Below are positions 2,557 through 59,583 of a stretch of 64,000 nt of DNA, piece after piece. The notes below the pieces were generated by a model. It worked only from the letters and a program-made list of their open reading frames with translations, did not search any database and was not told where the DNA came from. Numbering within the stretch: the first letter of the stretch is position 1; every line of letters starts with the position of its first letter. The DNA comes from Nitrospirota bacterium (GTDB lineage Bacteria > Nitrospirota > Thermodesulfovibrionia > UBA6902). Both the position numbers and the translations under genes were made by a program. The DNA is taken from positions 3,041-67,040 of the forward strand of contig JBDLIC010000004.1 of assembly GCA_039715075.1 (NCBI GenBank), written 5' to 3'.

Positions 2557-2586
2557 CGAAACCTATGAAAATGAAAAGGCAGTCTT

Positions 2587-2925: not shown

Positions 2926-2934
2926 GATTTTTCC

Positions 2935-3321: not shown

Positions 3322-3421
3322 ACGTTATTTATGAAGGCCTCCTGATTTATTGTGACTATAAAAAATTTACATGTTATCTGTCGAAAAATCAATAAATATT
3401 TGATAGAATGGGGGACAAGAA

Positions 3422-6352: not shown

Positions 6353-6356
6353 AAAA

Positions 6357-6387
6357 GCTGTCAGCTATCAGCAGTCAGCTTTCAGCT
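6357..6387. repeat. tandem heptamer array GCTNTCA x4.4
   Basis: gctgtca gctatca gcagtca gctttca gct, between convergent hisF and the ThiI-like gene; the same unit family recurs at 57990..58112. Confidence 0.8.
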
Positions 6388-6408
6388 AAGGCAGGAAAAT
6401 ATATAAAC

Positions 6409-7449: not shown

Positions 7450-7616
7450 AATAAAAATCCTTTGAGGAATCCAGGATTACAATTACCCGACTTTTATTCT
7501 TTTCATTCTGGCTTCTGGCTCCTGATTTCTTGTTTTTCTGTTTTAATTTTACAATTATTTGGCAGGATCTTTCAAATTCTCCTTGAACAAAAAAAACAAC
7601 TATTGTAAAGTATTCT

Positions 7617-11303
<3,687 letters not shown>

Positions 11304-16200: not shown

Positions 16201-17168
16201 TTGGAGTTTATCTGGCGGTAATAATCATATGCTTCTCTCAGTGCCTCTCCTGGAGTGCTTCCGTGATAGGGTGCTTCACCCTCAAGTGCAGTTAAAAATG
16301 AAGACATATTGGCCCCTTCAATCCCAACTTTCATTTCACCCAGTCTCGCCTCTGAAGCATTCTTACCGTTCGAAAAAACCATAAGCCCAAAGCGGGGTGA
16401 ATCATCATCCCATGTGCCGTTATAATCTTTATCCGACAGACGGTGGATAATTCCGCGTCTCTCATTTTCAGGTACATCTATTTGTACATCAGCACCCGAG
16501 AGAGTGCCTACTGCACAGGTACCGAGGCCGTAGTTACTGATGGTCAAAGTATGGGCAAGATTTGGAAAGGTACCACCGCTGAGTTCAAATGTGCAGTCAA
16601 GAGTGCTGTCCGAATAGGTCCGTCGTCCGCCTTCTCCCCTTAATGTATGTGCATTACCCTGGGTTGAAGCGGACTTTCCGCCCATGAGAACTTTTCTCAT
16701 GAGGTCTATCCTGCTCATTGTGGCCCAGTTAAGCAGATTTCCGGATATACAACCAGCTTTACCGATTTTGTTGTCGGTATCGTTGCACGCGGTTTGTTCT
16801 TCAAATTTGTTTGTGCCGTATCTATAGTACTTATCGATTTTAAAATAGCCGTAATATTTAAGTGAAGAGTCATAGTCATATGATGATGTGCCACTGCCGC
16901 ACTCTGCCACTTTGGTGCTGTATGAAAAATTAAGCAGGTCACAGCCTGTATATGCCGGGAACTGCATGCTTCCGGAGACGTCCAGAACTATAAGAATGTT
17001 CGGTTCGACAATATTAATTGTGAATGCAGGGTAGGCCGTATAATCGACCATTTCGGGCTCTGTTATTACAGCATTACCCGGTAAAGGTATGGCGCTCAAA
17101 AAAGTTATAATAAAAACCAGGAATAAATGTTTGATATTAATATTCATCATATACCTCCTAATGGGCAA
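13296..17168 (-). CDS. pilY1: type IV pilus tip adhesin / biogenesis protein PilY1 (N-terminal vWA + C-terminal PilY1 domain)
   Basis: 1290 aa; signal peptide; vWA MIDAS ILIVLDVSGSM; C-terminal PilY1 signatures VVYVGANDGMLHAF and GDELWAFIP. Confidence 0.85.
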   Translation of the reverse strand: MPIRRYMMNINIKHLFLVFIITFLSAIPLPGNAVITEPEMVDYTAYPAFTINIVEPNILIVLDVSGSMQFPAYTGCDLLNFSYSTKVAECGSGTSSYDYDSSLKYYGYFKIDKYYRYGTNKFEEQTACNDTDNKIGKAGCISGNLLNWATMSRIDLMRKVLMGGKSASTQGNAHTLRGEGGRRTYSDSTLDCTFELSGGTFPNLAHTLTISNYGLGTCAVGTLSGADVQIDVPENERRGIIHRLSDKDYNGTWDDDSPRFGLMVFSNGKNASEARLGEMKVGIEGANMSSFLTALEGEAPYHGSTPGEALREAYDYYRQINSNSYEDNNAYLGGQGSLQDPMCDNGTMIGCRKNFVLLISDGDWNGKIDPVIPARENFINDIRSDIDEKQNIITYTVYTAFGEEDAGGRNSLQQVAMFGDFEDFDSNTWPYDRAAYPADSRAVTLPASPCPDTIATPLASRADGCNEWDKNANGIPDNFYEATGGSNLEAALLEAITDMLKRASSGTAVSVLSTSGEGEGAVYQAYFLPEKMEGIEHRNWLGYMQALFVDKYGNLREDTNGNNALDMSSDKILSMTYTTNEGTKVYKCSDSNGDGAIDSCPSTPEEFDSIKAIWRGGESLWSKPPASRNIFTTIDGVTELDFIEANSTDLKPWLRASDSDATEVTNIIKWVRGDDLAGVTDANHLTGYRERTITIPPVTGTTNTWKLGDIINSTPVTVARPAENFDLAYSDTTYSRFRSVNINRRQVVYVGANDGMLHAFNAGCYDSVNHQFYADVNAVGKCYSGGSNTLGDELWAFIPRSLLPHMKWLTDPDYTHVYYTDLKPYVTDVKIFNSGTHTEGWGTILIGGMRMGGKDISWTRSSTDYSASPEYFAIDISDPLNPELLWSFTHADLGLTMSKPTIVKIGTTWYAIFGSGATDYNSGSNLTTYQNGNIFVIKISGGADGKIAAWVENTNFWKISTGNSNAFMAHPITLDINSDFNDDIMYIGENIATITGPANNQVTTWNTLMRRITTSEGTMSDPANWVLSTLANVDDIDGSGNYDVVRRITSSPSASMDSRGKLWVFFGTGQFYGSGDKNQTDTGGFYAMRDECWRGNCTTSYSDLLDASVSAVDTDGNVSGVSGNCSSAATSTWPSLLSGSYGCDGWSIFFDRVGESIDFTGESLSHPGERVTSSPLVFGGLVTWTTYIPGIDTCAFEGESNLYAVFYKTGTAFTKYVFKEQKEQANPSSTVARVKNLGKGMPSSVSAQITASGTIKGFAQQSTGAIAELEADPAVKINSRLTGWVGEENK

Positions 17169-17490
17169 ACATTGAAACTACAATTTTATTGACGCAGCCA
17201 TTTCCTTCATATAGTTCAACATGTGTTGCTGCTGACAGGTCTTCAAAGGGTATTTCTTTTGTTTTGAAATAGAAAGATATGCCTGTACAAAAATCGAATC
17301 TCATGTTGTCTACAATAATGTAAGACTTCGTAATATCATTCATTTTCCCTTCGTAAACATTGTCAGTGACATTGGCGTCTGAGGCGTAGGTTTCAACAGT
17401 TGCTGCCATATATGTAAAAGAAAACATTATCATCACTATGAATGAGATTAAAACTGTTTTTCTGATTTTCACTTTCATTATTCCCTCCAT
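17158..17490 (-). CDS. small secreted hypothetical protein in pilus operon
   Basis: 110 aa with N-terminal signal/TM segment; translationally coupled between pilX and pilY1; no recognisable domain. Confidence 0.5.
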   Translation of the reverse strand: MEGIMKVKIRKTVLISFIVMIMFSFTYMAATVETYASDANVTDNVYEGKMNDITKSYIIVDNMRFDFCTGISFYFKTKEIPFEDLSAATHVELYEGNGCVNKIVVSMFAH

Positions 17491-18032
17491 TATTTATCAA
17501 CATATATATAAAAAGATCCTGCTGTTGTTTGTGCGCCTATCCCGGGTATAGATGCTTCTGAATTAACTCTGAAGTAGATTGCGCCTTTACCGTCACACCT
17601 GCCCACCCCTTCATAGCAGTTATGGGTCATTATTGCAAAACCTTCACTCTTTGCAGCGCTGACCTTGTCTATGTCAATAGAAACAGTTGTCCCGTCAACT
17701 ACATATGTCATATCAGGGCTTGCATCGGTATTATCTGTATCGAATGAGTCACCTCTCAGTTCATCTATGAGGTTGGAAATGTCGGTAGATGTGCCTAAAT
17801 ATGCAGTATACTCAGCTGGAGCTGTGAGCATTATCATATCGCCAACAGGTTTAGGTATATGTTTGATGCCAGAGTCTGCCAGTGCCTCATTTTCTTCAAT
17901 GATCCTGATATTACCTGACAGAATGTTTTCAATGGAACTCGTTCCCATTGCTGCCATACCGATAACGGTCAGTACCATTAGTAACAAAATAGCAGTAACG
18001 AGGATATAGCCGTTTTCCTGTTCTCTCATCAT
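17490..18032 (-). CDS. pilX: type IV pilus minor pilin PilX-like
   Basis: 180 aa; N-terminus GYILVTAILLLMVLTVIG typical of PilX_N. Confidence 0.7.
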   Translation of the reverse strand: MMREQENGYILVTAILLLMVLTVIGMAAMGTSSIENILSGNIRIIEENEALADSGIKHIPKPVGDMIMLTAPAEYTAYLGTSTDISNLIDELRGDSFDTDNTDASPDMTYVVDGTTVSIDIDKVSAAKSEGFAIMTHNCYEGVGRCDGKGAIYFRVNSEASIPGIGAQTTAGSFYIYVDK

Positions 18033-18034
18033 AA

Positions 18035-19084
18035 TTATAGGACCCCCTCGAGATTTTTAACGAATACTATCGATTGCTGCCACCTGCGTTTGAAATCATC
18101 TCCGGGCTGCGGGATAATGTTATTTTCTATTGCTGCCGGAGGGTTTCCCATACCTCTGAAACTCAGGTCACTAGTCTGGGACATTGTAAGGATATTTATT
18201 CTGACTGCCCTTATCCGTGAATAGTTTGCAGGAGCTACTATGCTGGTGAAATCAGTATCATCCAGCAGATTAGCACTTCCGTCAATTTCTCCAAATGGGG
18301 CTACTACATCGACTGCATATGAAAACTGGAGGTCTTCTATATTTTCAGCGATAATCTGATTAAAGGGTCCAAGTGGTGAGCCTGTACAAGCGGGGAGCAC
18401 AACTCCTAAATCTATTTTATGTAGATTTGCATCAGCATCTACACAGAATGTCGTGTCCTGAAGCAGGTAAACAGGTCTGCCTTTATCACAAAAAGAATCT
18501 CCGTCTGTATCCTCTAACCAATGATTCTGCCCGGTTGTTGTTACGAATGTCACAGCAGTACCTGTAAAGCTGGCAACAGTTGCAAACTCAATGCCGCCAA
18601 GCAGCAGAGTGCTGCCTGCAACAGGACCTACCAGTGGATCATCCAGAATAATATCAGCCCCCCCTGAATCTAGCTCCAGTTTTTGGTCATCTGAATTATT
18701 TCCGTCACAATCCTCATTAGTTCCAGCATTCATACCAGTAGGCCAGAGCTCACCGATACGGCGGGCAGTTATCACGGTAATTGCGTCCGGCCCACCTCCG
18801 AAATCACTAGGGACTATTGTCGAATTAAACCCGAATAGCGTGGCGGGGATTTCGGTAGACATATTAAAAGAAAAGCTGAAAGGGGAACCCTTTATGGTAC
18901 GTTTTATAAGGTCGTGTGCCACTTTTACCTGAGTATTCATTTCTGTTACGTCTTCCTGTGCAGTGTATGAGCGGTTTTGGACTACATATGTTGCAGATGC
19001 AGCGGCAATAAGCATCATACTGATGACTACTGCGACCATTGTTTCAATAAGAGTAAACCCTCTGTCATTTCTTTCTGTAATCAT
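18035..19084 (-). CDS. pilW: type IV pilus assembly protein PilW
   Basis: 349 aa; prepilin-type N-terminal cleavage/methylation motif GFTLIETMVA. Confidence 0.8.
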   Translation of the reverse strand: MITERNDRGFTLIETMVAVVISMMLIAAASATYVVQNRSYTAQEDVTEMNTQVKVAHDLIKRTIKGSPFSFSFNMSTEIPATLFGFNSTIVPSDFGGGPDAITVITARRIGELWPTGMNAGTNEDCDGNNSDDQKLELDSGGADIILDDPLVGPVAGSTLLLGGIEFATVASFTGTAVTFVTTTGQNHWLEDTDGDSFCDKGRPVYLLQDTTFCVDADANLHKIDLGVVLPACTGSPLGPFNQIIAENIEDLQFSYAVDVVAPFGEIDGSANLLDDTDFTSIVAPANYSRIRAVRINILTMSQTSDLSFRGMGNPPAAIENNIIPQPGDDFKRRWQQSIVFVKNLEGVL

Positions 19085-19599
19085 GGGTATTGTATCCTCG
19101 GTGCATTGAATTCTACGGAATGGTTTATTCCATTCTTGTCAGCCCAGCATGTCCTTGTCGTTACCATGCTGAAAGGGGCTGTTGTATTTATGGTGCAAGG
19201 CGGGGCTGCGCCGGCCGGGCCGCATAATGAATTTGCAGCGGGACCAAGTCCCCTGCAGCTGCCGCTGGCCCACCATGACCTTGTGAAGGTGACTCCGCCG
19301 GATATAGCGCTGAAACTGGCTTGATCACCACCAAAACCTGGAAGTGAATAAGGCGTGTCTGTCCCTGCGCCCAATGCAACCATTGTATTATATGGAGTAG
19401 CAAGTATCTGGTCCAGGTATTCGGTATTAAGAGTTGTTGCGATCCTCATTTCCCTGCTAGATGCGTTGCCTGTGACAGCAAAGTACTGCATGCCCATCAC
19501 TCCAAGCACTCCGATAAGCAGGACTGTCATGGCCACCATTACTTCTATCAATGTGAACCCGTTCCTGTTTCTCATCTTACCTCCGTCCAGGCGCAGCAT
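19081..19599 (-). CDS. pilV: type IV pilus modification protein PilV
   Basis: 172 aa; GFTLIEVMVAMTVL N-terminal prepilin motif. Confidence 0.8.
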   Translation of the reverse strand: MLRLDGGKMRNRNGFTLIEVMVAMTVLLIGVLGVMGMQYFAVTGNASSREMRIATTLNTEYLDQILATPYNTMVALGAGTDTPYSLPGFGGDQASFSAISGGVTFTRSWWASGSCRGLGPAANSLCGPAGAAPPCTINTTAPFSMVTTRTCWADKNGINHSVEFNAPRIQYP

Positions 19600-20252
19600 C
19601 TTCTCCGGGCAGAAGCACAGTCAACAACAGTCGCTGGAGCCATGTCTCCTGTTTGACCATCCCACTTCCAGAGTTCCAGTTTTCCTGTCATGTAACTAAG
19701 TTTTACCATATAGCTGTTATTATTGACTGGATGTGTTATCAATGCATAACCCGGTGGTTCATCTATCGTGCCGTCAGCATTAAAAGTCTGGGCCAAAGGA
19801 TTGAGCACCCCGAAGGCAACCGGATTTCCCGTCCCCATGCAGGCAGGACATGAACCAGGAGCATTGCTTGGTGCAAGGGCTGGCGCAGATCCAAATATGA
19901 CTCTGCCTCCATACCTGTTCTGGAGGTTAATTACTTTGGTGGGTAATACTCCGTATCCAGCGAGAATTCCGGTGATAGCTGCGTCTTCAGCCGGGTCGGC
20001 ACCAATCGAATAAGTATTTGCACCAGGGTTAAACAGAATTGTGTACGATTGCCCTTCTTTTATTGCCATTGTCCTTACGAGTTTCATTTCCTGCATAAGT
20101 TCGACCGCTGCTTCCCTGACCATACTGCTGGCATTAAAATTATTATACGCGGGAACTGCGAAGGCGGAAAGGACTGCAATAAGAGCTACAACGCTCATAA
20201 ACTCGATTGTGCTGAAACCTTTTTCATTTTTGATTGTCAGTTTTTTCATCAT
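19572..20252 (-). CDS. GspH/FimT-family minor (pseudo)pilin
   Basis: Prepilin motif GFSTIEFM lies 11 aa after the internal start MMKKLTIKNEK. The ORF-track start at 20369 would give a 50-aa leader, so the start is placed at 20252. First gene of the minor-pilin operon. Confidence 0.65.
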   Translation of the reverse strand: MMKKLTIKNEKGFSTIEFMSVVALIAVLSAFAVPAYNNFNASSMVREAAVELMQEMKLVRTMAIKEGQSYTILFNPGANTYSIGADPAEDAAITGILAGYGVLPTKVINLQNRYGGRVIFGSAPALAPSNAPGSCPACMGTGNPVAFGVLNPLAQTFNADGTIDEPPGYALITHPVNNNSYMVKLSYMTGKLELWKWDGQTGDMAPATVVDCASARRRCCAWTEVR

Positions 20253-20470
20253 GCCATTAAAGAAAGCAAGTTTAATACCAGAAATAAAATGGTTGTTTAT
20301 CCGGAAGTTATCTGAATTAAGATATCCTGTTATGAAACCTGTTACACAGGGATATGTAGAAGGTTTCATGATTTTTCAATGATTCAGAGTAAATTGAAAC
20401 CAGAGAATTGCATTATGTTTTGCAGGTTATATTGTTGTATACTTATTAGAAAAATTTAAGGGAGAAATAA

Positions 20471-24450: not shown

Positions 24451-25095
24451 ATGATTAAAATTAACGAGATATTTGAAAGCATTCAGGGCGAATCGACATA
24501 CTCGGGTCTGCCCTGTACATTTGTGAGACTGGCGGGCTGCAATCTCAGGTGCACATACTGTGATACGAACTATGCCTATTACAATGGAAAAGAAATATCG
24601 GATGAAGAGATAATTGCAAAGATTGATGAATACGGAGTTAAGTTGGTTGAGTTTACAGGCGGAGAACCCCTGCTGCAGGAAGAAACTCCAAAGCTGATCA
24701 AGACTCTCCTTGACAAGGGATATGAAGTCCTTATAGAAACAAACGGCTCGATCTGTATCGGATGTCTTGATAAGCGGCTCAATATTATTATGGATTACAA
24801 AACCCCAAAAAGCGGTATGAGCGAGAGGATGAGAGTCAAGAATTTCGAGTTCCTGAAGAAGACAGACCAGATAAAATTCGTACTCATGGACGAGTCCGAT
24901 TATATATGGGCAAAAGATATTATAGTAAGCAATAACCTGATCGAAAAGCATGATAATATCCTGATGTCTCCTGCTTTTGATGCGCTTTCTCCGAAATCTC
25001 TCGTTAACTGGGTACTTAAAGATAACCTTCAGGTAAGAGTGCAGCTCCAGATCCATAAATACATCTGGGCTCCTGACGAACGTGAAGGGGTTTGA
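24451..25095 (+). CDS. queE: 7-carboxy-7-deazaguanine synthase QueE (radical SAM)
   Basis: 214 aa; IQGESTYSGLPCTFVRLAGCNLRCTYCDT. Confidence 0.9.
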   Translation: MIKINEIFESIQGESTYSGLPCTFVRLAGCNLRCTYCDTNYAYYNGKEISDEEIIAKIDEYGVKLVEFTGGEPLLQEETPKLIKTLLDKGYEVLIETNGSICIGCLDKRLNIIMDYKTPKSGMSERMRVKNFEFLKKTDQIKFVLMDESDYIWAKDIIVSNNLIEKHDNILMSPAFDALSPKSLVNWVLKDNLQVRVQLQIHKYIWAPDEREGV

Positions 25096-26299
25096 GAAGC
25101 ATAGCACAAAGGGCAGAGAGCAAAGAAGAACAAAAAAAGAATTTGGCCCTGAGCTCAGAAAACTCAAGCATCAAAACCTTCTAAGAAAACTTACCTCCCT
25201 GGAATCATCTCACAATTCAAAGATATCTATAAAGGGGCAGACCTTTATTGATTTTGCTTCCAACGACTATCTCAATCTATCATGTCACCCTGAAATTCTA
25301 GCAACAACTGTTAACGCACTTAAGAAGTACGGATTTGGTTCCGGGGCCTCAAGGCTTTTAAGCGGTACGTATCATGCTCATGAGAGGCTCGAAAAAAGGA
25401 TCGCACAATTTAAGAAGACAGAGGCTGCCCTGGTTTTTAATTCAGGATATGCAGCAAACACAGGAGTTATTCCTGTGATAGCCGGGAAAGACGCTCTGAT
25501 TTTCAGTGATGAGCTTAATCATGCGAGTATTATAGACGGCACCAGACTTTCAGGTGCGGATGTTATGGTTTATAAACACAGGGACATGGATTGTCTTGAG
25601 GCTCTATTAAAAAGAAGTTCCAGCAGCGGGAAAATCAAGAGAAGAATAGTTGTTACAGATACGGTATTCAGTATGGACGGAGATATTGCACCTTTAAAAA
25701 ATCTGGTGACGATCAGCAGAAAATATAATACATTGCTTATGATTGATGATGCTCATGGTACCGGGGTTTTGGGCGAAACGGGCAGGGGCGGGCTGGAACA
25801 TTTCGGGATCAGGGGAGACAGTATTATACAGATGGGCACATTCAGCAAGGCATTTGGGTGTTACGGGGCTTTTGTTGCCGGCAAAAAGGATTTGATTAAT
25901 CTTTTAATAAGCAGCGCCAGAAGCTTTATGTACTCAACATCTCTTCCTCCGGCTGTGGCAGAGGCAGGAGTCAAAGCGCTGGAAATTGTTGCTTCAAGGT
26001 CAGCAAGGTTGAGAAAGAGGCTCTGGAAAAACAGAGAACGTCTTTATCATGGATTAAGAGAACTTGGATTTGATACCCTTGGTTCAGAGACTCCTATAAT
26101 CCCTGTTTTAACAGGTGATATAAACAGGACATTAAAGTTAGGGGAACATTTATACAAAAATAGAATATTTGCACCTGCGATAAGACCGCCGACAGTCAAG
26201 GAAGGAAAATGCAGGACCAGGTTTACCGTAACTGCTGGGCATACGGATGAAGATATTGACAGGCTGCTGGAGGTTATGAACAAGGCGAAGAGGAAATAG
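25082..26299 (+). CDS. bioF: 8-amino-7-oxononanoate synthase
   Basis: 405 aa; class II aminotransferase fold; FSKAFG PLP-lysine motif; bioD downstream. Confidence 0.85.
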   Translation: MKGFEKHSTKGREQRRTKKEFGPELRKLKHQNLLRKLTSLESSHNSKISIKGQTFIDFASNDYLNLSCHPEILATTVNALKKYGFGSGASRLLSGTYHAHERLEKRIAQFKKTEAALVFNSGYAANTGVIPVIAGKDALIFSDELNHASIIDGTRLSGADVMVYKHRDMDCLEALLKRSSSSGKIKRRIVVTDTVFSMDGDIAPLKNLVTISRKYNTLLMIDDAHGTGVLGETGRGGLEHFGIRGDSIIQMGTFSKAFGCYGAFVAGKKDLINLLISSARSFMYSTSLPPAVAEAGVKALEIVASRSARLRKRLWKNRERLYHGLRELGFDTLGSETPIIPVLTGDINRTLKLGEHLYKNRIFAPAIRPPTVKEGKCRTRFTVTAGHTDEDIDRLLEVMNKAKRK

Positions 26300-26306
26300 G
26301 GCAAGT

Positions 26307-26330
26307 AGGGGCAGGTTTGAAACCTGCCCT
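26307..26330. repeat. GC-rich hairpin AGGGGCAGG-N6-CCTGCCCT
   Basis: aggggcaggtttgaaacctgccct immediately after the bioF stop; identical stem arms recur at 27927..27950. Confidence 0.7.
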
Positions 26331-26345
26331 AAGGATATCATTAAT

Positions 26346-27053
26346 ATGGTTTGTTTAATAACAGGTTCATCAAGAGGTCTTGGAAAAGAACTGGCCCTAT
26401 ATTTTGGAAAGAAGGGCTACAGGATTGCTGTGCATTGTAAAGAGAGCAGGACAGAATCGGAAGATGTTGCATCACAGGCTGGCGAATCCATCGTTCTTAA
26501 GGCTGATGTCAGGGTCTGCAAAGATGTAAAGGCTATAGTTGATAAGGTTATCGACAGGTGGGGAAGAATTGATCTGCTTGTTAACAATGCAGGCATTACA
26601 AAGGAGTCCCTGCTCATTAAAACATCGGAAGAGGATTTTGATGATGTGATAAATACAAACCTGAAAGGGCCATTTAACATGATCCGGGCTGTGGGAAGGC
26701 ATATGATGAAGCAGAAGAGCGGGCATATCATTAATATTTCTTCTTACGCGGGAGTTAAGGGCAAAGAAGGACTGTCTGCCTATTCTGCGTCAAAATCTGG
26801 CCTTATAGGACTGACAAAGACTGCTGCCAGAGAATTAAGCAGATACAATATTATGGTCAATGCTGTTCTGCCCGGGTTTATGCTCACTGATATGGGTGCC
26901 GGCTCCAGCGGCACGGCAAAAGAGAAGGCATTAAACGAAAGTCTTGTGAAAGATTATTCTAATCCTGCAAAGATTGCGGAGTTTATCGGAAATCTTTCTG
27001 AAGCCTCAGGGATAACAGGGCAGGTTTTTAATCTGGACAGCAGGATAATTTAA
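26346..27053 (+). CDS. SDR family oxidoreductase (FabG-like 3-oxoacyl-ACP reductase)
   Basis: 235 aa; TGSSRGLG cofactor motif; YSASK catalytic motif. Confidence 0.85.
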   Translation: MVCLITGSSRGLGKELALYFGKKGYRIAVHCKESRTESEDVASQAGESIVLKADVRVCKDVKAIVDKVIDRWGRIDLLVNNAGITKESLLIKTSEEDFDDVINTNLKGPFNMIRAVGRHMMKQKSGHIINISSYAGVKGKEGLSAYSASKSGLIGLTKTAARELSRYNIMVNAVLPGFMLTDMGAGSSGTAKEKALNESLVKDYSNPAKIAEFIGNLSEASGITGQVFNLDSRII

Positions 27054-27071
27054 TTAATATTTTGAAGATTT

Positions 27072-27169
27072 AAATCCCCCTTTGGCAAAGGGGGATTTAG
27101 GGGGATTATTAAAATGATTTTAGTATGATTATAAAATCTCCCCTAACCCCTCTTTGCCAAAGAGGGGAA
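27072..27169. repeat. bipartite palindromic intergenic repeat, copy A (~100 bp)
   Basis: hairpin aaatccccctttggcaaagggggattt + agggggatt + AT-rich spacer + aatctcccctaa + hairpin cccctctttgccaaagagggg; homologous copies at 49509..49598 and 63914..63960. Confidence 0.85.
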
Positions 27170-27182
27170 ATATAAAAAGAAA

Positions 27183-27887
27183 ATGAACAAAGGCATATTT
27201 ATTACAGGGACTGATACAGGGATTGGTAAAACTTTTGTAGCCTGCGGATTAATCAGGGCCATGAAAGAAAAGGGAATGAATGTCTGCCCGATAAAGCCCG
27301 TAGAGTCCGGATGCCGGTCGGTCAGAGGGGAGCTTATTCCGTCTGATACAAAAAAACTTATCAAAGCATCAGGTATTGACGAACCAATCGATTTAATCAA
27401 TCCATACAGGCTGAAACATCCGCTTGCTCCATCAGTTGCTGCAAAAATCGAGGGAGTAGCGATTAATAAGAAAAAGATATTTTCCGCATATAAACGGTTG
27501 TCAAAAAAGTATGACATTACAGTTGTTGAAGGGGCAGGGGGTATTATGGTACCTGTTTATAAAAAATATCTTTTCCTTGATCTTGCAAAAGATCTGGACA
27601 TTCCGGTTGTGATTGTTGCAAGGCCGGGTCTTGGAACGATTAATCATACTCTTCTTACAATTGAAGCTCTCAGGAGTAATGGATTGTCTGTTGCCGGTGT
27701 GATAATTAATTGTGCAGTGAAATCCGGAAAAGGATTGTCCGAGAAAACTAATCCTGAAGTTATTGAAAAGCTTGGGGGTGTCCCTGTGTTAGGCTCGGTA
27801 CCGCATGATAACAACACTGCTTTTATCCCTGTAAAAAAAGTATTTGTTCAGATAATTGAAAAGATGCTGCTGCGGTTAATGGGTTGA
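27183..27887 (+). CDS. bioD: dethiobiotin synthetase
   Basis: 234 aa; FITGTDTGIGKT P-loop. Confidence 0.9.
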   Translation: MNKGIFITGTDTGIGKTFVACGLIRAMKEKGMNVCPIKPVESGCRSVRGELIPSDTKKLIKASGIDEPIDLINPYRLKHPLAPSVAAKIEGVAINKKKIFSAYKRLSKKYDITVVEGAGGIMVPVYKKYLFLDLAKDLDIPVVIVARPGLGTINHTLLTIEALRSNGLSVAGVIINCAVKSGKGLSEKTNPEVIEKLGGVPVLGSVPHDNNTAFIPVKKVFVQIIEKMLLRLMG

Positions 27888-27926
27888 AATTGATTTTAAA
27901 ATACTAACAACATCCCACAACGATTT

Positions 27927-27950
27927 AGGGGCAGGTCTTGTGCCTGCCCT
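27927..27950. repeat. GC-rich hairpin AGGGGCAGG-N7-CCTGCCCT (second copy)
   Basis: aggggcaggtcttgtgcctgccct after the bioD stop; same stem as 26307..26330. Confidence 0.7.
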
Positions 27951-28048
27951 GTCTGTATCGCCTATTAGCAATTCTAAATAAAGGGCGCCCGCAAGAGTCG
28001 CCCCTACAATTTGACTAAAGCATTTAAAATCAGTTAATTTGAACGACC

Positions 28049-28885
28049 ATGAGACATCCTGAATGGATAAAAGTTAAATCAACAGGTACACATAATACAA
28101 AGAAAATCCTGAGGCATCATGGAGTATCCACTGTCTGTGAAGAAGCACGGTGCCCCAATCAGGGAAAGTGCTTTTCACAGAGTACCGCCACATTTATGAT
28201 CCTTGGCGACAGGTGTACCCGAAACTGTTCCTTTTGTGCAGTAGAATCATCAGCACCCCTTCCTCTTGATCCTGGTGAGCCAGGGAAAGTTGCTGAGGCA
28301 GCTTCTGCTCTGGGGCTCAGGTTTGTGGTAATAACATCTGTCACGAGAGATGATCTTCCTGACGGCGGGGCAGAGCAGTTTGCCAAAACTATTGAAACTG
28401 TTAGGGAGATAAATAAATCAATTAAAATAGAGGTTTTAACCCCTGACTTTAAAGGAGATAGTGAGGCGCTCAAGACAGTACTGGATGCGCGGCCGGATGT
28501 GTTTAATCATAATATCGAGACTGTTCCATCATTATATAAAAATGTAAGGCCCATGGCTGACTATAACACATCGCTGAATGTACTCAGGACCGTAAGGTCA
28601 CTCTGTCCGGATTTGAGAACCAAATCGGGTATGATGCTCGGCCTTGGAGAATCAGAAAAGGAGGTCCTGTCGGTAATGAGTGACCTGAGAAATGTTGATT
28701 GCGATTTTTTAACGATAGGTCAATATCTGCAGCCCCGGAGAACGAACATTTCGCTGGTTGAATATGTAAAACCGGAGGTCTTCGAACAATACAGGATCAA
28801 AGGTCTCGAAATGGGTTTCAAGGCAGTTGCCTCATCACCCCTTACCAGAAGCTCAATGGATGCGGGAAAAATGTTTGATGGATAA
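28049..28885 (+). CDS. lipA: lipoyl synthase
   Basis: 278 aa; CEEARCPN auxiliary cluster motif and CTRNCSFC radical-SAM motif. Confidence 0.92.
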   Translation: MRHPEWIKVKSTGTHNTKKILRHHGVSTVCEEARCPNQGKCFSQSTATFMILGDRCTRNCSFCAVESSAPLPLDPGEPGKVAEAASALGLRFVVITSVTRDDLPDGGAEQFAKTIETVREINKSIKIEVLTPDFKGDSEALKTVLDARPDVFNHNIETVPSLYKNVRPMADYNTSLNVLRTVRSLCPDLRTKSGMMLGLGESEKEVLSVMSDLRNVDCDFLTIGQYLQPRRTNISLVEYVKPEVFEQYRIKGLEMGFKAVASSPLTRSSMDAGKMFDG

Positions 28886-30280: not shown

Positions 30281-30282
30281 AA

Positions 30283-30371
30283 ACTGTTCCAACCGTTCCA
30301 ACAGTTTTAACTGTTCCAGCAGTTAACGGCTCAAGCGGCTGAAACGGCTGAAACGGCTGGAACGGTTTTTT
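30283..30371 (+). terminator. compound repeat-hairpin terminator (inverted 9-mer arrays + T6)
   Basis: Array ctgttccaa ccgttccaa cagttttaa ctgttccag and an inverse array aacggctga aacggctgg aacgg, followed by tttttt. Confidence 0.55.
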
Positions 30372-30461
30372 ACATCTTGAATAAATCCCTTTATTTAGAG
30401 CATAATATCAAGTTAGATATAATCTGAGAAAACTCAAAATAGTATGAAATCAGGAGTATAA

Positions 30462-31772
30462 GTGAGAAAAGACGCTGTAAATGTAGGTATTATCGGTTTT
30501 GGCACTGTAGGGGTGGGGACTGCAAAGATTCTCTTGAACAGGCAAAAAAAGCTTGAGAAAGAGCTGGGGTTTCCTGTTGTTCTGAAGAACATTGCCGACC
30601 TTGATACAAAGCGAGACAGGGGCGTTAAACTCAAAAAAGGTGTACTGATAAATGACGCTGCTGCAATATTAAATGATCCTGAGATAGATATTATTGTAGA
30701 GCTGATTGGTGGAATTCACCCTGCAAAGGAAATGGTAATTGAGGCTGTCAATAATAAAAAACATGTGGTTACTGCAAATAAAGCTCTTCTTGCAGAAGAG
30801 GGTAGTGCCATTTTCAGGGCTGCAGGGAAAAATAAAGTGGATGTTGGTTTTGAAGCTTCAGTCGCCGGATGCATACCTATTATTAAGGTTGTAAGAGAGT
30901 CAATGATCGGAAATGAAATAAGGAACATATACGGGATCATTAACGGGACTGCTAATTATATACTGACAAAAATGACAGAAGAGGGTGTTGATTTTGAGTC
31001 TACCCTTAAGGAGGCACAGGCACTGGGATACGCGGAGGCAGACCCGACTTTTGATATTGAGGGTATTGATTCCGCGCACAAGCTTGCGATACTGGCGACG
31101 CTTGCATTTGGAATACCGTTTTCATTGAAAAAGATCCATACCGAAGGTATTACCGGGATAACCCCGCTGGATATACAGCTTGCATCTGAGTTGGGGTACA
31201 AGATCAAACTACTTGCAATTGCAAAACAGTCAGGCAAAGACATAGAAGTAAGAGTTCACCCTACAATGCTGCCTAAAGGTGAACTTATTTCTAATGTCAA
31301 CGGCGTCTTTAACGCTATTTTTGTTGAAGGTGACGCAACCGGCGATTCCCTTTATTACGGCAAGGGAGCTGGTGAAATGCCGACTGGAAGCGCTGTTGTG
31401 AGTGATATTATAGATATTGCAAGAAATATAAGGACCGGAGCCACAGACAGGATCAGGAGTGTTGAGGTTTCAGCAAACTCAGGCCCGAAGATTAAAAAGA
31501 TGGAAGATATACGGACCTGTTATTACCTTCGTTTGTCTGCCATTGACAAGCCGGGCGTACTTTCCAAAATATCAGGGATTCTGGGCAAGCATAATATAAG
31601 TATTGAATCGATGATCCAGAAAGGAAGAAAAAAAGAGAAGGCCGTGCCCCTGGTCATGATGACACATGAAGCCAGGGAAAAGGACATGGTCCGGGCATTA
31701 CGGGAAATCAAGCGACTTTCCGCCATATCCGGAGAGCCCATGTACTTAAGAGTTGAAGGAGGTAAAAACTGA
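30462..31772 (+). CDS. hom: homoserine dehydrogenase
   Basis: 436 aa; GTG start; NAD-binding VGIIGFGTVG; C-terminal ACT domain. Confidence 0.93.
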   Translation: MRKDAVNVGIIGFGTVGVGTAKILLNRQKKLEKELGFPVVLKNIADLDTKRDRGVKLKKGVLINDAAAILNDPEIDIIVELIGGIHPAKEMVIEAVNNKKHVVTANKALLAEEGSAIFRAAGKNKVDVGFEASVAGCIPIIKVVRESMIGNEIRNIYGIINGTANYILTKMTEEGVDFESTLKEAQALGYAEADPTFDIEGIDSAHKLAILATLAFGIPFSLKKIHTEGITGITPLDIQLASELGYKIKLLAIAKQSGKDIEVRVHPTMLPKGELISNVNGVFNAIFVEGDATGDSLYYGKGAGEMPTGSAVVSDIIDIARNIRTGATDRIRSVEVSANSGPKIKKMEDIRTCYYLRLSAIDKPGVLSKISGILGKHNISIESMIQKGRKKEKAVPLVMMTHEAREKDMVRALREIKRLSAISGEPMYLRVEGGKN

Positions 31773-31773
31773 A

Positions 31774-32022
31774 ATGAGTGATGAAAAGATAGATAAAAAA
31801 CTTGATATAAGGGGCGAAAAATGCCCGTACACGCTCGTTAAATCAAAACTCGGTGTCGAGAGTATTGAAGTAGGCCAGGTGATAGAAATTCTATTGGATT
31901 ATCCCGAGGCTGCAGACAGCATCCCGAAGGCGATGCTTAATTACGGCAATGCAGTACTTAAAGTCGAAAAAATAAACCCAAAAGAATGGATTATTCATGT
32001 AAGAAAAGAGGTTGAAGACTGA
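31774..32022 (+). CDS. TusA-like sulfurtransferase
   Basis: CPYTL motif in DIRGEKCPYTLVK; ATG at 31774 has a GGAGGT SD 9 nt upstream; the track ORF start at 31753 is a TTG. Confidence 0.75.
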   Translation: MSDEKIDKKLDIRGEKCPYTLVKSKLGVESIEVGQVIEILLDYPEAADSIPKAMLNYGNAVLKVEKINPKEWIIHVRKEVED

Positions 32023-32822
32023 TGGACTTTAATGAAGAGCAATTAAAAAGATACAGCAGACATATTATCCTGCCTGAAGTAGGGGGCAAGGGTCAGAAAA
32101 AAATATCCGCGGCAAAGGTCCTGATGGTTGGTGCAGGCGGGCTTGGATGCCCTGTCGGCTATTACCTTGCTGCTGCAGGAGTCGGCACCATTGCTGTCGT
32201 AGACAATGATGAGGTGGAACTCAGCAACCTTCAGAGACAGATTGCGCACAGCGTGAAGACACTGGGTGTAAATAAGGCCGAATCTGCCAAGCAGACCTTC
32301 GAGGGGCTTAACCCGGATGTAAACGTAGTAACAATAAAAGAGAGATTAAACAGTAAAAATATCCTTGATCTGATGAAGGATTATGATATTGTTGTTGACG
32401 GTACGGACAATTTCCCAACACGGTATCTTATAAATGATGCATGTGTAATGCTGAAAAAACCCCTTGTGAGCGGAGCAATTCTGAGGTTTGAAGGACAGAT
32501 AACAACAATATTGCCGGGTGAAGGGCCGTGTTACCGCTGTTTATTTGAAGAGCCGCCTCCGGCAGGGCTTGTCCCGTCGTGCCAGGAAGCAGGGGTACTT
32601 GGAGTGCTGCCGGGTGTTATAGGTGCGCTTCAGGCAACAGAGGTCCTTAAACTAATACTGGGCAAGGGAAAGCCTTTAAGCGGCAGCCTGCTTATATATG
32701 ATGCACTCGGAGTAAATTTCAGAAAAGTTAAAATCCCTAAAAACGATGACTGTCCGGTCTGTGGGAAAGATCCGAAGATCACGGACCTGGAAGATCTTCC
32801 GGAAGAGTATTGTTCAATTTAA
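32022..32822 (+). CDS. ThiF/MoeB family sulfur-carrier-protein adenylyltransferase (E1-like)
   Basis: 266 aa; GAGGLGCP nucleotide motif; C-terminal CYRC...CPVCG zinc motif; no rhodanese domain. Confidence 0.88.
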   Translation: MDFNEEQLKRYSRHIILPEVGGKGQKKISAAKVLMVGAGGLGCPVGYYLAAAGVGTIAVVDNDEVELSNLQRQIAHSVKTLGVNKAESAKQTFEGLNPDVNVVTIKERLNSKNILDLMKDYDIVVDGTDNFPTRYLINDACVMLKKPLVSGAILRFEGQITTILPGEGPCYRCLFEEPPPAGLVPSCQEAGVLGVLPGVIGALQATEVLKLILGKGKPLSGSLLIYDALGVNFRKVKIPKNDDCPVCGKDPKITDLEDLPEEYCSI

Positions 32823-32825
32823 AAA

Positions 32826-32914
32826 GGATCCAAGGGGTCCAGGGTTCAAGGATTCGAGTGAAAGAAAAATCAGTTTCACTTGAACCCTCGAATCCTTGAA
32901 TCCTTGAATCCTAG
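32826..32914. repeat. inverted tandem-repeat arrays (GGNTCCAGG-type 9-mers vs CCTTGAATC-type)
   Basis: ggatccaag gggtccagg gttcaagga ttcgag ... cttgaaccc tcgaatcct tgaatcct tgaatcct, between moeB/thiF and the ThrC paralog. Confidence 0.7.
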
Positions 32915-32979
32915 ACTCCTGGTAATAAACAGGAAATATTTTACTAAGTATAGAAGTAATATTGGAGGCAAATTAAATT

Positions 32980-34215
32980 ATGGGTTATGTAAGAGGACTT
33001 AAATGCAGAGAGTGCGGCAGGGAGTATCCTGTTAAACCTATATATGTCTGTGAGTTCTGCTTTGGTCCTTTGGAAGTTGTTTATGATTACGAAGGCATCA
33101 AAAAAGTTCTGACCAGGGAAGTGATTGAATCAAGGCCGCAGAATTTATGGCGTTACAAGGAACTGATGCCGATCGACAATGAGCCGACATGCGGGCTTCA
33201 TTCCGGATTTACGCCCCTTGTCAAGGCTGATAAACTTGCAGCGCATATCGGGCTGAAAGAACTGTATATTAAAGATGATACGGTGACTCACCCGACACTC
33301 TCGTTCAAGGACAGGGTAGTTGCGGTTGCGTTATCAAAGGCAAAGGAGTTCGGATTTGACACTGTTGCATGCGCATCTACGGGAAACCTGGCGCACTCGG
33401 TTTCAGCACACGGCGCTGCCGCGGGCCTGAAAAGGTTTATTTTTATTCCCGCGAGCCTTGAGCAAAGCAAGATAATCGCTTCTCTTGCATATGGGCCTAA
33501 TCTGATCGCTGTTGATGGTAATTATGATGATGTTAACAGGCTCTGCAGTGAAGTTGCCAATAAGTACAACTGGGCCTTTGTGAATATTAATATCAGGCCA
33601 TACTACGCGGAGGGGTCAAAGACACAGGGTTATGAAATAGTCGAACAGCTCGGGTGGAAGGTGCCCGACGCGGTTGTTGTCCCATGCGCAAGCGGTTCCC
33701 TGCTTACGAAGATATGGAAGAGCATGAAGGAAATGAAAGAGGTAGGACTTATTGATGAGGTGAATACTAAAGTGTTCTCTGCACAGGCCACGGGGTGTTC
33801 ACCGATTGTTGCGGCTATAAAGGACGGTGTAGATGTTATTAAGCCTGTAAAGCCGAATACTGTTGCGAAGTCACTTGCTATCGGAAATCCTGCCGACGGT
33901 TTTTACGCAACACGCGTAATAAAGGAGAGCGGGGGGTATGGAGCCGATGTTTCGGATGCGGAAATAATTGAGTCAATGAAACTCATGGCAGAGACCGAAG
34001 GAATATTCGCTGAAACTGCCGGGGGCGTAACTCTTGCTTCAGCAATAAAGCTGATAGAGAGCGGCCATATAGACCGTAATGCTGTGACTGTTCTATGCAT
34101 AACGGGTAATGGATTGAAGACAAAAGAAGCGATAATGGGACATACGGGGGAGCCTCATCATATTGATCCTAATCTGAAATCCTTTGAGGAAGCTCTCGTT
34201 CAAATGAAAAGATGA
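32980..34215 (+). CDS. threonine-synthase-family PLP enzyme with N-terminal zinc ribbon (MetM-like candidate O-phosphohomoserine-dependent homocysteine synthase)
   Basis: 411 aa; CxxC...CxxC at the N-terminus; PLP-lysine motif FKDR; ThrC fold; neighbours are sulfur-carrier genes. Confidence 0.7.
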   Translation: MGYVRGLKCRECGREYPVKPIYVCEFCFGPLEVVYDYEGIKKVLTREVIESRPQNLWRYKELMPIDNEPTCGLHSGFTPLVKADKLAAHIGLKELYIKDDTVTHPTLSFKDRVVAVALSKAKEFGFDTVACASTGNLAHSVSAHGAAAGLKRFIFIPASLEQSKIIASLAYGPNLIAVDGNYDDVNRLCSEVANKYNWAFVNINIRPYYAEGSKTQGYEIVEQLGWKVPDAVVVPCASGSLLTKIWKSMKEMKEVGLIDEVNTKVFSAQATGCSPIVAAIKDGVDVIKPVKPNTVAKSLAIGNPADGFYATRVIKESGGYGADVSDAEIIESMKLMAETEGIFAETAGGVTLASAIKLIESGHIDRNAVTVLCITGNGLKTKEAIMGHTGEPHHIDPNLKSFEEALVQMKR

Positions 34216-34273
34216 ACAGGTTAAAAGAAAAATCATCTGATAAATCTGTGGATATATAAAAGGAGGAAGATTC

Positions 34274-34555
34274 ATGGCTGTAACAGTAAAAATACCGGTC
34301 CCGCTGCAAAGGCTTACGCAGGGGAAGGAAGAAGTTGAAGGTGCTGCAGGCACAATAATATCACTCATTAACGATCTGGAACAAAACTATCCGGGCCTTG
34401 CTGAAAGGATAACCGAGGACGGTAAACTGAGAAGATTTGTTAATGTGTATGTGAACGAAGAAGACGTAAGGTTTATGAAAAATGAAGAAACAGAAGTCAA
34501 GGACGGAGATGAAGTCTCTATAGTTCCTGCAATTGCAGGCGGAGCTGCAAGATAA
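34274..34555 (+). CDS. ThiS/MoaD-family sulfur carrier protein with C-terminal GG-AAR extension
   Basis: 93 aa beta-grasp; ends ...VSIVPAIAGGAAR. Confidence 0.7.
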   Translation: MAVTVKIPVPLQRLTQGKEEVEGAAGTIISLINDLEQNYPGLAERITEDGKLRRFVNVYVNEEDVRFMKNEETEVKDGDEVSIVPAIAGGAAR

Positions 34556-34580
34556 TGCAGGTATACAGAAGGGAGCAGTT

Positions 34581-34817
34581 ATGAAGACCAGGATAAAGCT
34601 CACCTTTCCCCAGGACCTTATAAGGGAACCGGTTATATTTGTTATGGCAAAGGAGTTTGACATCATGCCGAATATAAGGAGGGCGCGTGTTACCGAAACT
34701 GTAGGGGAGATGATAATGGAGCTTGAGGGTTCAGATGAGAATGTCAAAAAAGGTATCGAGTCACTTAAGCAGAAGGGCGTGGATGTTGAGCTTGTAGAGG
34801 GTGATATTTTAGAGTAA
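34581..34817 (+). CDS. NIL-domain protein (methionine-pathway associated)
   Basis: MKTRIKLTFPQDLIREPVIFVMAKEF resembles the NIL domain of MetN C-termini; the internal ATG at 34581 has a GAAGGGA SD, whereas the track start at 34533 overlaps the carrier gene. Confidence 0.55.
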   Translation: MKTRIKLTFPQDLIREPVIFVMAKEFDIMPNIRRARVTETVGEMIMELEGSDENVKKGIESLKQKGVDVELVEGDILE

Positions 34818-34819
34818 TT

Positions 34820-35887
34820 ATGAAAGCATGGCATGGACTGATTAACCAGTATAGAAATTTTCTACCCGTTACCGGAGAAACACCTGTTATTACCCTCAAT
34901 GAAGGGAATACTCCACTAATAAAAGCTTCTCATATAAGAGACGTTGTGCAGGAAGATATAGACCTGTACTTTAAATATGAAGGCTCCAATCCAAGCGGTT
35001 CATTTAAGGACCGGGGCATGACCCTTGCCATTTCAAAGGCAGTCGAAGAAAAAGCAAGGGCCGTCATATGTGCATCCACCGGAAATACCTCGGCCTCTGC
35101 GGCTGCATATGCAGCGAAGGCTAAACTGGGGGCTCTTGTCCTGATCCCTGAAGGCCAGATAGCTATGGGGAAACTTGCCCAGGCCATGATTCATGGTGCG
35201 ACAGTGCTGCAGATCGACGGCAACTTTGACGATGCATTGAAAATTGTAAAAATTCTTGTTGAGAAACATCACTTTTCTCTTGTTAATTCCCTGAACCCGT
35301 TCAGAATCGAAGGCCAGAAAACAGGGGCCTTTGAGGTCTGTGATCATCTTGGCAAAGCACCTGATTATAATATCCTTCCCGTAGGGAATGCCGGAAATAT
35401 TACAGCATACTGGAAGGGGTACAATGAATATCGTGATGCAGGCAGAATCAGTCATCTGCCGAAGATGCTCGGTTTTCAGGCAGAAGGAGCAGCGCCGCTC
35501 GTAAATGACAGGCGTGTAGAGAATCCCGAGACGGTGGCAACTGCTATCAGGATAGGGAACCCCGCAAGCTGGAATGGAGCAATAGCTGCAAGAGATGAAT
35601 CCGGGGGGCTGATAGAATCAGTGACAGATGAGGAAATACTTGAGGCATATAAATTCATTGCGTCAAAAGAAGGGATATTCTGTGAGCCCGCTTCTGCCGC
35701 TACCCTGGCAGGTCTTATAAAAAAGGCTAAGCAGAATTACTTTTCTGATGGAGACACAGTCGTCTGTACACTGACAGGCCACGGTCTAAAGGACCCAGAC
35801 ATAGCGCTGAAAATGTCGGAGCAGCCCGTAAAGGTGAAAGCAGACATTTCTGCTATAGAAGAAATACTAAGAGGCTGCTGCCTGTAA
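34820..35887 (+). CDS. thrC: threonine synthase
   Basis: 355 aa; short-form ThrC with SFKDRG PLP-lysine motif. Confidence 0.92.
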   Translation: MKAWHGLINQYRNFLPVTGETPVITLNEGNTPLIKASHIRDVVQEDIDLYFKYEGSNPSGSFKDRGMTLAISKAVEEKARAVICASTGNTSASAAAYAAKAKLGALVLIPEGQIAMGKLAQAMIHGATVLQIDGNFDDALKIVKILVEKHHFSLVNSLNPFRIEGQKTGAFEVCDHLGKAPDYNILPVGNAGNITAYWKGYNEYRDAGRISHLPKMLGFQAEGAAPLVNDRRVENPETVATAIRIGNPASWNGAIAARDESGGLIESVTDEEILEAYKFIASKEGIFCEPASAATLAGLIKKAKQNYFSDGDTVVCTLTGHGLKDPDIALKMSEQPVKVKADISAIEEILRGCCL

Positions 35888-59216: not shown

Positions 59217-59495
59217 TTAATCGAAAATCAAGGGATAATTATAAGAGCCGTTACAGATAAATGTCAAACATAATATTGAGGTTTCCCTATATTTGTTAAA
59301 CCAGCGCCTGCTCAAGACAGACAGGAGGTCTGATACATCTTCAATCCCTGCAGACAGACGGAAGAGGCCGTCTTCCGTGTTTTCGAGCGCGCGCAGCTTA
59401 TCGATGAGTGTCCTCTGGTTAGGCGTATTGAAATAACGTGGATAGACAGGGCCTGTCGAGATATTCAAATGCAGAGTATGTGAATATAGAAGTAT
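59217..59495 (-). pseudogene. 3' remnant of a Cys/Met-metabolism PLP enzyme (MetY/MetB/MetC family)
   Basis: Open frame after a stop at 59496..59498 reads ...LIDKLRALENTEDGLFRLSAGIEDVSDLLSVL. This is the C-terminal signature (G)LIRLSVGIEDxxDLIxDL of cystathionine synthase/lyase and sulfhydrylase enzymes. Only ~45 homologous residues remain, then readthrough. Confidence 0.55.
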
Positions 59496-59583
59496 TTACT
59501 CCCCGTACCTCCTTTTCATTATATGTGCCGCTGTGTACGCATTGAGTATGTTTTTTCATTGTCTTCTCCCTGGGAAACCAGAC

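Follow-up and report, generated by a model that had tools for sequence, protein, structure and literature searches.

The question raised by this locus is what a second threonine synthase-like enzyme does between the genes for homoserine dehydrogenase and canonical threonine synthase, where it is accompanied by a set of sulfur-carrier genes. The locus lies in a stretch of 64,000 nucleotides, here called the window, of a Nitrospirota bacterium (GTDB lineage Bacteria; Nitrospirota; Thermodesulfovibrionia; UBA6902; assembly GCA_039715075.1, contig JBDLIC010000004.1, positions 3,041 to 67,040 of the forward strand). Seven co-directional open reading frames (ORFs) on the + strand, 30462-35887, encode, in this order, homoserine dehydrogenase (hom), a TusA-like protein, a ThiF/MoeB-type E1, a zinc-ribbon paralog of threonine synthase (ThrC), a CysO-like sulfur carrier, a NIL-domain protein and canonical ThrC. 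The initial annotation had listed the same ORFs, all of which are present on this strand with matching positions and domain content, and had proposed for them a MetM/MetO-type route, in which a carrier thiocarboxylate donates sulfur to O-phospho-L-homoserine (OPHS) to give homocysteine. This proposal is supported by the carrier adjoining the enzyme gene in 73 of 81 loci, a SAM-I (S-adenosylmethionine) riboswitch in 31 of them, the separation of the paralog from ThrC and a corresponding actinomycete locus. Judging from these comparisons, we give a probability of about three in four that the operon unites the OPHS branch point with a MetM/MetO-type, carrier-thiocarboxylate-dependent homocysteine synthase system.

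To define the family, one genome per species was scanned, which yielded 80 loci; all counts below refer to 81 loci, with the window's own contig included. The 80 loci encode proteins 56-87% identical to the window paralog and belong to more than 10 phyla, including Nitrospirota, Verrucomicrobiota, Planctomycetota, Cyanobacteriota, Chloroflexota, Acidobacteriota, Thermodesulfobacteriota, Nitrospinota and Aquificota. ORFs were called in all loci and searched with the window proteins, and features were counted within 5 kb on the same strand. The CysO-like carrier (73/81) mostly follows directly 3' of the enzyme gene. A ThiF-type E1 was present in 25 loci, a JAMM-motif ORF in 14 (two examples were confirmed as Prok-JAB), TusA in 7 and an extra CysK/CysM-like enzyme dependent on pyridoxal phosphate (PLP) in 18. 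NIL and carrier occurred together in 45 loci, as separate proteins in 39 and fused in one ORF in 6.

Rfam reported a SAM-I riboswitch directly 5' of the enzyme gene in Micromonospora, in a Verrucomicrobiae metagenome-assembled genome (MAG) and in a Tepidisphaeraceae MAG. A nhmmer profile was built from these three elements and run on the 81 loci, where it detected a SAM-I element in 31, all on the coding strand and 90-270 nt 5' of the enzyme gene or of the first gene of the operon. The Rfam covariance model upheld each of the ten weakest matches (68-96 bits, cutoff 44 bits); altogether, Rfam confirmation was obtained for 13 of the 31 nhmmer loci, plus Micromonospora and Nonomuraea. Family members preceded by a SAM riboswitch occur in actinomycetes and four other phyla.

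The MetM/MetO pathway was reportedly described in Streptomyces albulus by Hasebe et al. in 2024. Secondary sources give S. albulus metM an upstream SAM riboswitch, cyanobacterial homologs and the partners MetO, Mec and MoeZ (bioRxiv 10.1101/2024.10.14.618325; PMC12172450). When Streptomyces homologs were sought, the best 120 matches to the actinomycete representative P0126 were all from Micromonosporaceae. A locus of Nonomuraea gerenzanensis, found by tblastn of a plasmid collection, was used as a proxy for S. albulus. It shows a SAM riboswitch (2328-2469), the enzyme gene (2483-3718) and a carrier ending in GG (3743-4018), which is the layout that the secondary sources give for S. albulus metM-metO. 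The window paralog is 53% identical to the Nonomuraea enzyme, 51% to the riboswitch-fronted Micromonospora enzyme and 59% to the cyanobacterial members, which have been described as MetM homologs (PMC12172450); the carriers of window and Nonomuraea share 48% identity.

Within the operon, genes are spaced by -1 to +58 nt, with a gap of 157 nt 5' of the paralog as the single exception. The identical seven-gene order was found in two close relatives (L083 and L084), including the closed genome CP070632.1, and part of it in a third (L036); the juxtaposition is therefore not a product of chance. Canonical thrC is a neighbor in 4 of 5 Thermodesulfovibrionia loci and hom in 2 of 5, and in no other lineage among the 81 loci. 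The first gene, hom (30462..31772), encodes homoserine dehydrogenase with a C-terminal ACT domain (Homoserine_dh, PF00742, E=5e-66; NAD_binding_3, PF03447; ACT, PF01842) and reaches 552 bits against NF004976 (cutoff 205). Its product would supply homoserine, the precursor of OPHS. The last gene, thrC (34820..35887), encodes a canonical ThrC (TIGR00260, 327 bits, cutoff 167 bits), 59% identical to the solved ThrC of B. subtilis and 62% to that of Aquifex. This enzyme would convert OPHS to threonine and, as such, be the rival consumer of OPHS.

The carrier gene (34274..34555) starts 58 nt 3' of the paralog and encodes a MetO/CysO-like ubiquitin-fold protein of 93 aa (PF02597, E=8e-18). Its C-terminus reads AIAGG-AAR, with three residues beyond GG. 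Most carriers of the family stop at GG, and those of Thermodesulfovibrionia have 1-4 variable extra residues; relatives of the window carrier end in GGC, GGAV, GGSC, GGAFIM or GGRGI. Before adenylation, the AAR tail would first be removed to expose GG, presumably by a JAMM/Mec-type enzyme encoded elsewhere. MetO likewise needs maturation of its tail, and Mec is named for this step (bioRxiv 10.1101/2024.10.14.618325).

Adenylation of the C-terminal glycine would be the task of the E1 (32022..32822; 266 aa; PF00899, E=2e-87), which consists of the ThiF domain only and has no rhodanese domain. Its motifs CYRC and CPVC agree with the CxxC..CxxC zinc motif noted before. It scores 315 bits against NF004281 (cutoff 266), and the short E1 orthologs in MetM-like loci (25/81) score 330-394 bits. 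The tusA-like gene (31774..32022; 82 aa; PF01206, E=6e-18) encodes a sulfurtransferase with the active-site cysteine in GEKCPYT, and its stop codon overlaps the E1 start. The ATG at 31774 was called as start (4632-4880 in L001); TTG at 31753 is also possible. Six of the seven TusA genes in family loci adjoin E1s of about 267 aa (L001, L013, L021, L025, L036, L038); in the seventh locus (L011), tusA lies several kb from an E1 of 355 aa. In MoeZ, the rhodanese domain delivers persulfide sulfur. We infer that TusA is the persulfide supplier in its place: a TusA persulfide would turn the E1-bound carrier adenylate into the thiocarboxylate. Alternatively, free sulfide might attack the acyl-adenylate in a sulfidic anaerobe.

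The paralog, too, could take its sulfur directly from free sulfide and make homocysteine from OPHS, with carrier, E1 and TusA being dispensable or serving another purpose such as molybdopterin synthesis, tRNA thiolation or cysteine synthesis. Sulfide is abundant in an anaerobe metabolizing sulfate or sulfur, the window has no JAMM gene despite the unprocessed carrier tail, NCBIfam calls the E1 MoeB, and a nearby carrier is missing from 8 of the 81 loci (e.g., L008, L020, L042 and Micromonospora L082). However, a carrier adjoins the enzyme gene in all other loci across phyla, an E1 is present in 25 loci and JAMM in 14, and the S. albulus enzyme uses the MetO thiocarboxylate according to the GapMind summary (bioRxiv 10.1101/2024.10.14.618325). 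We therefore regard direct use of free sulfide as unlikely.

Among solved structures, the carrier is closest to CysO proteins, first the one in the BexX/CysO complex (4n6e_B, E=2e-24) and then that of M. tuberculosis (3dwg_C, E=3e-22). This would fit a cluster making cysteine in a CysO-type pathway, with the ThrC-like enzyme using O-phosphoserine like M. tuberculosis CysM, and so would the 18 loci in which CysK/CysM-like enzymes and JAMM also occur by the carrier. Yet those loci encode the CysM-like enzyme separately, beside the ThrC-like one, and such a gene is missing from the window. Furthermore, the ThrC-like gene follows SAM riboswitches and no cysteine-related elements, and in the window it lies between hom and thrC, two genes of the homoserine pathway. 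Cysteine synthesis by the paralog is thus quite improbable. As a separate observation, eight loci of Nitrospirales and relatives (L019, L027, L031, L035, L037, L041, L053, L054; about 5100-10200) carry genes for a CysK/M-like enzyme, ThiF, the MetM-like enzyme, carrier, NIL and a second ThiF, with JAMM in 6 of 8; a single carrier may be shared there by the synthesis of cysteine and that of homocysteine.

The paralog itself (32980..34215; 411 aa; PF00291, PALP, E=7e-69) is a PLP enzyme of the ThrC family. As had been suggested, it bears an N-terminal zinc ribbon, and the four ribbon cysteines (C9, C12, C24 and C27) do not vary across alignment A1. Identity to the ThrC encoded in the same operon is 33%, against 56-77% to relatives linked to a carrier or a SAM riboswitch. 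In a subfamily alignment of 81 family members and 8 canonical ThrCs, SFKDR with the PLP lysine and the STGN loop are common to both groups. At 34 positions, however, residues conserved to at least 90% in the family and to at least 85% in ThrC differ between the groups. For example, STGNT is changed to STGNL and SFKDRGM to SFKDRVV; in NPYR, tyrosine takes the place of the arginine, and another arginine appears three positions upstream. At ThrC-invariant positions, the paralog accordingly has T90 replaced by L, R162 by Y, N159 by R and G66-M67 by V-V. On these sequence grounds, the paralog belongs to a distinct zinc-ribbon ThrC-like subfamily and is probably not a second ThrC.

The competing view, that the paralog is a second threonine synthase or threonine-metabolizing isozyme with the sulfur-carrier genes as unrelated neighbors, draws on its passing the thrC models TIGR00260 (289 bits, cutoff 167) and NF006050 (309 bits, cutoff 303), and on a homolog from M. 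aeruginosa that acted in vitro as a threonine synthase and also as a threonine deaminase (PMC12172450). It is very unlikely given the canonical ThrC in the same operon, the 34 differing positions, and the frequency of carrier and SAM riboswitch in the family, which would be unexpected for a threonine enzyme. The initial annotation had named an assignment to ThrC or to cysteate synthase as what would speak against its proposal; for the latter, the paralog scored 60 bits against TIGR03844, far under the cutoff of 325 bits. A cysteate synthase-like enzyme combining O-phosphoserine and sulfite, an activity that reportedly also descends from ThrC (Graham et al. 2009), can be dismissed as extremely improbable given this score, the SAM riboswitch linkage of the family and coenzyme M genes not being nearby.

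Two 50%-identity representatives of the family (P0241 and P0269) appeared to be fusions of enzyme and carrier. They were rejected as such: both contain arginine-rich out-of-frame stretches and are frameshifted calls over two adjacent genes on high-GC contigs. Calls of this kind could mislead surveys of domain architecture.

Gene identities, subfamily separation from ThrC, synteny, riboswitch linkage and fusions are direct observations; we infer substrate, sulfur donor, processing and the roles of TusA and NIL as follows. A kinase encoded elsewhere would make OPHS from homoserine. After tail removal, adenylation and sulfur transfer as outlined above, the MetM-like paralog would perform a PLP-dependent gamma-replacement on OPHS with the C-terminal thiocarboxylate of the carrier as nucleophile. 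The product would be homocysteine, possibly released via a carrier adduct formed first. NIL would exert feedback control in a lineage without the SAM riboswitch found ahead of these genes in other phyla.

Several observations weigh against this assignment. The paralog passes both thrC models, and its kinship to the characterized S. albulus MetM appears to be indirect, via the Nonomuraea, Micromonospora and cyanobacterial proxies. The cyanobacterial member from M. aeruginosa was a weak threonine synthase as well as a threonine deaminase in vitro and did not raise methionine in vivo (PMC12172450); MetM activity may therefore not be general across the family. The E1 could equally serve molybdopterin synthesis. 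No JAMM/Mec gene was found in the 64-kb window with a motif scan and with tblastn using 16 JAMM-motif ORFs from the family loci, although the carrier is tailed. Rfam searches of the two intergenic regions of the window's operon, at gathering and E-value thresholds, detected neither a riboswitch nor any further known RNA. About 45 ORFs of the window were scanned with Pfam, and homoserine kinase (thrB), metE/metH, metA/X, metB/Y and DUF39 were all absent among them; the window also has no met regulator. Finally, a decayed Cys/Met PLP enzyme had been taken as a hint that the classical sulfhydrylase route may be decayed. Two pieces of such a gene are present (59217..59559, - strand), about 45 N-terminal and 30 C-terminal aa in different frames with the middle deleted, 23 kb off and outside the operon. 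The joined peptide reached 20.6 bits against PF01053 (cutoff 27; E=1.8e-4), so that the remnant is only weakly confirmed, and a sub-threshold remnant in 64 kb cannot show that the classical route was lost. At a distance of 2 kb, a class I/II aminotransferase gene (61236-61727, - strand) is truncated to profile positions 215-360 of 361, which suggests a small patch of gene decay.

The proposed system was compared with known ones. Like S. albulus MetM/MetO, it has a ThrC-homologous PLP enzyme by a ThiS/CysO-like carrier, an E1 for the thiocarboxylate, a carrier tail to be matured and OPHS as the proposed substrate. It differs in that the window has no SAM riboswitch and no Mec/JAMM gene, a NIL protein is present and the genes stand between hom and thrC; moreover, S. 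albulus MoeZ combines ThiF and rhodanese, whereas the window E1 is short and rhodanese-less with TusA beside it. With the CysO-CysM-Mec-MoeZ system of M. tuberculosis it shares a homologous carrier, a fold-type II PLP enzyme and, as proposed, thiocarboxylate chemistry on a phosphorylated hydroxy-amino acid, and JAMM hydrolases are found in many of the family loci. In contrast to that system, the enzyme belongs to the ThrC family and not to CysK/CysM, the linkage is to SAM and methionine, and the window has neither a CysM-like gene nor JAMM.

A HcyS-HcyF-HcyD-MetY methionine pathway is said to have been described in Wolinella succinogenes by Krishnamoorthy and Begley in 2011. It is similar with respect to the carrier extension after GG (HcyS-Ala), the rhodanese-less E1 and the homocysteine product. 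In Wolinella, sulfur is accepted by an O-acetylhomoserine sulfhydrylase, a member of the Cys/Met PLP family, whereas here the acceptor is ThrC-like with OPHS as the presumed substrate, and the window's only trace of the Cys/Met PLP family is the sub-threshold remnant. The L-aspartate semialdehyde sulfurtransferase known as L-ASST (DUF39/COG1900 plus NIL-ferredoxin; MA1821/MA1822, DvMF_1464/DvMF_0262) likewise has NIL on a homocysteine-forming system. The window NIL, however, has neither ferredoxin nor cysteines, DUF39 was absent among the scanned window ORFs, and the route would run via homoserine and OPHS.

The NIL gene (34581..34817 as called) encodes a stand-alone, cysteine-free protein of 78 aa (PF09383, E=2e-17). 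A link between NIL domains and methionine genes had been pointed out initially; this was correct and proved stronger than stated, with NIL as a recurrent and at times fused partner of the carrier. The adjacency was observed in at least 10 phyla, in the order carrier-NIL or, in Chloroflexota, NIL-carrier; among the Cyanobacteria, none of 14 loci had a NIL partner. In the six fusion loci, the carrier runs past AIAGG through a linker of 3-8 residues into NIL (Pfam ThiS plus NIL), and a JAMM gene is nearby in all six. With one fusion as the query, at least 120 distinct fusion clusters of 167-189 aa were retrieved from the protein database, all with ThiS plus NIL. Wherever this was checked, the fusion adjoins the zinc-ribbon ThrC-like gene, including two database fusions (Limnocylindrales and Nitrospirae) directly 3' of that gene. 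In a Nitrospirae MAG (L086, 6596-7831), a gene for ATP sulfurylase follows directly after the ThiS-NIL fusion and links the cluster to sulfate assimilation.

In an AlphaFold 2 model of one fusion, both domains are confidently predicted (mean predicted local distance difference test score, pLDDT, 90.7), with a dip in confidence at the GG linker; domain orientation is undefined (predicted template modelling score, pTM, 0.54). The model fits a cleavable two-domain precursor and defines no interface. In Foldseek and profile searches, domain 1 matched CysO and domain 2 the C2 domain of MetN, which binds methionine (3dhx_A, E=1e-6). The NIL protein thus shares fold and family with the C2 (NIL) domain of the MetNI importer (further Foldseek matches 3tui and 3dhw), and the Asn of N-I-x is kept; in contrast to MetN, where the domain forms the regulatory tail of an ABC ATPase, NIL is here stand-alone with 78 aa or fused after the carrier GG. 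A structural neighbor of the fusion model (template modelling score about 0.48) is the two-domain MoaD-related protein 1v8c of T. thermophilus (168 aa), in which a second domain comes after a MoaD-like domain with VAGG at its end. It was rejected as a NIL relative when the NIL profile failed on this C-terminal domain.

The NIL family has no conserved cysteine (26 of 46 members are cysteine-free); a role in sulfur relay or as Fe-S protein is therefore unlikely. Its most conserved motif is N-x-R-x-A-x-V. For L-ASST, the ferredoxin subunit's NIL domain has been described as binding methionine and as regulating activity (PMC12068725). NIL is most likely a methionine-sensing accessory or regulatory subunit which physically partners the carrier; it would bind methionine or a close analog and thereby provide feedback control of the carrier system. 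A more extended proposal comprises NIL as a widespread, hitherto unrecognized third component of MetM/MetO systems gating the carrier or MetM, a ThiS-GG-NIL precursor cut by JAMM in several lineages, and replacement of MoeZ by TusA plus the short E1 in the same anaerobic lineages. We consider it tentative, with chances a little short of even. The precursor would be cut in a manner likened to ubiquitin-fusion precursors and to MoaX, a MoaD-MoaE fusion, and NIL would bind methionine or homocysteine.

The pathway itself was already published in 2024; what looks new are the NIL and TusA accessories. The locus varies the published pathway by a rhodanese-less E1 with TusA, by the NIL partner and by integration with hom and thrC without a riboswitch, and the NIL-carrier association with the ThiS-GG-NIL fusions is the part going beyond the published system. 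The literature searched, which did not include Hasebe 2024, held no link between NIL domains and ThiS-like carriers, and the Iyer/Aravind 2006 survey of prokaryotic ubiquitin-like operons has no mention of threonine synthase, NIL or methionine. The association and the fusions offer a testable lead on feedback in protein-thiocarboxylate systems and on NIL function outside ABC transporters, and the operon is a case of one lineage wiring the OPHS branch point, threonine versus homocysteine, into a single transcription unit.

A practical consequence concerns annotation. The paralog passes the thrC models, which explains why family members are named 'threonine synthase' in all public sources seen. 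The MetM pathway is included in GapMind 2026, where MetM is also said to be named threonine synthase (bioRxiv 10.1101/2024.10.14.618325). Consequently, a methionine route may be overlooked, and auxotrophy wrongly predicted, when metabolism is modelled from genomes of Nitrospirota, Verrucomicrobiota, Planctomycetota, Chloroflexota and other phyla.

Upstream of hom, an imperfect hairpin with a U-run (30281..30371, + strand; -48.6 kcal/mol, z=-4.1; no Rfam match) is likely the terminator of the preceding aminotransferase gene. It is followed by a promoter-like site, TTTAGA-18-TATAAT (30394-30423, + strand), identified by consensus match only. Because this strong hairpin with U-run and the promoter-like site precede it, hom is probably the first gene of the transcription unit. 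The gap between the E1 gene and the paralog contains an imperfect hairpin of 88 nt (32825..32912, + strand; -52 kcal/mol, z=-4.8) without a U-run and without an Rfam match, which may split or stabilize the transcript. Both hairpins are about 88 nt long and mutually unrelated.

Further 5' of the operon, on the + strand (24451-28885), genes for a radical-SAM protein, a BioF-like aminotransferase, a short-chain dehydrogenase/reductase, a BioD-like protein and a LipA-like radical-SAM protein probably form a biotin/lipoate cofactor cluster; their order is kept in L083. In the closed genome CP070632.1, a group II intron domain (RF02003, 86 bits; L083 18097-18236, - strand) is found 6 kb 3' of the operon. 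Unrelated to the operon, a cluster of type IV pilus minor pilins (PilX_N, PilW, N_methyl) occupies 13296-20369 on the - strand of the window, by an ORF of 1290 aa and a gene for an Ig-domain protein.

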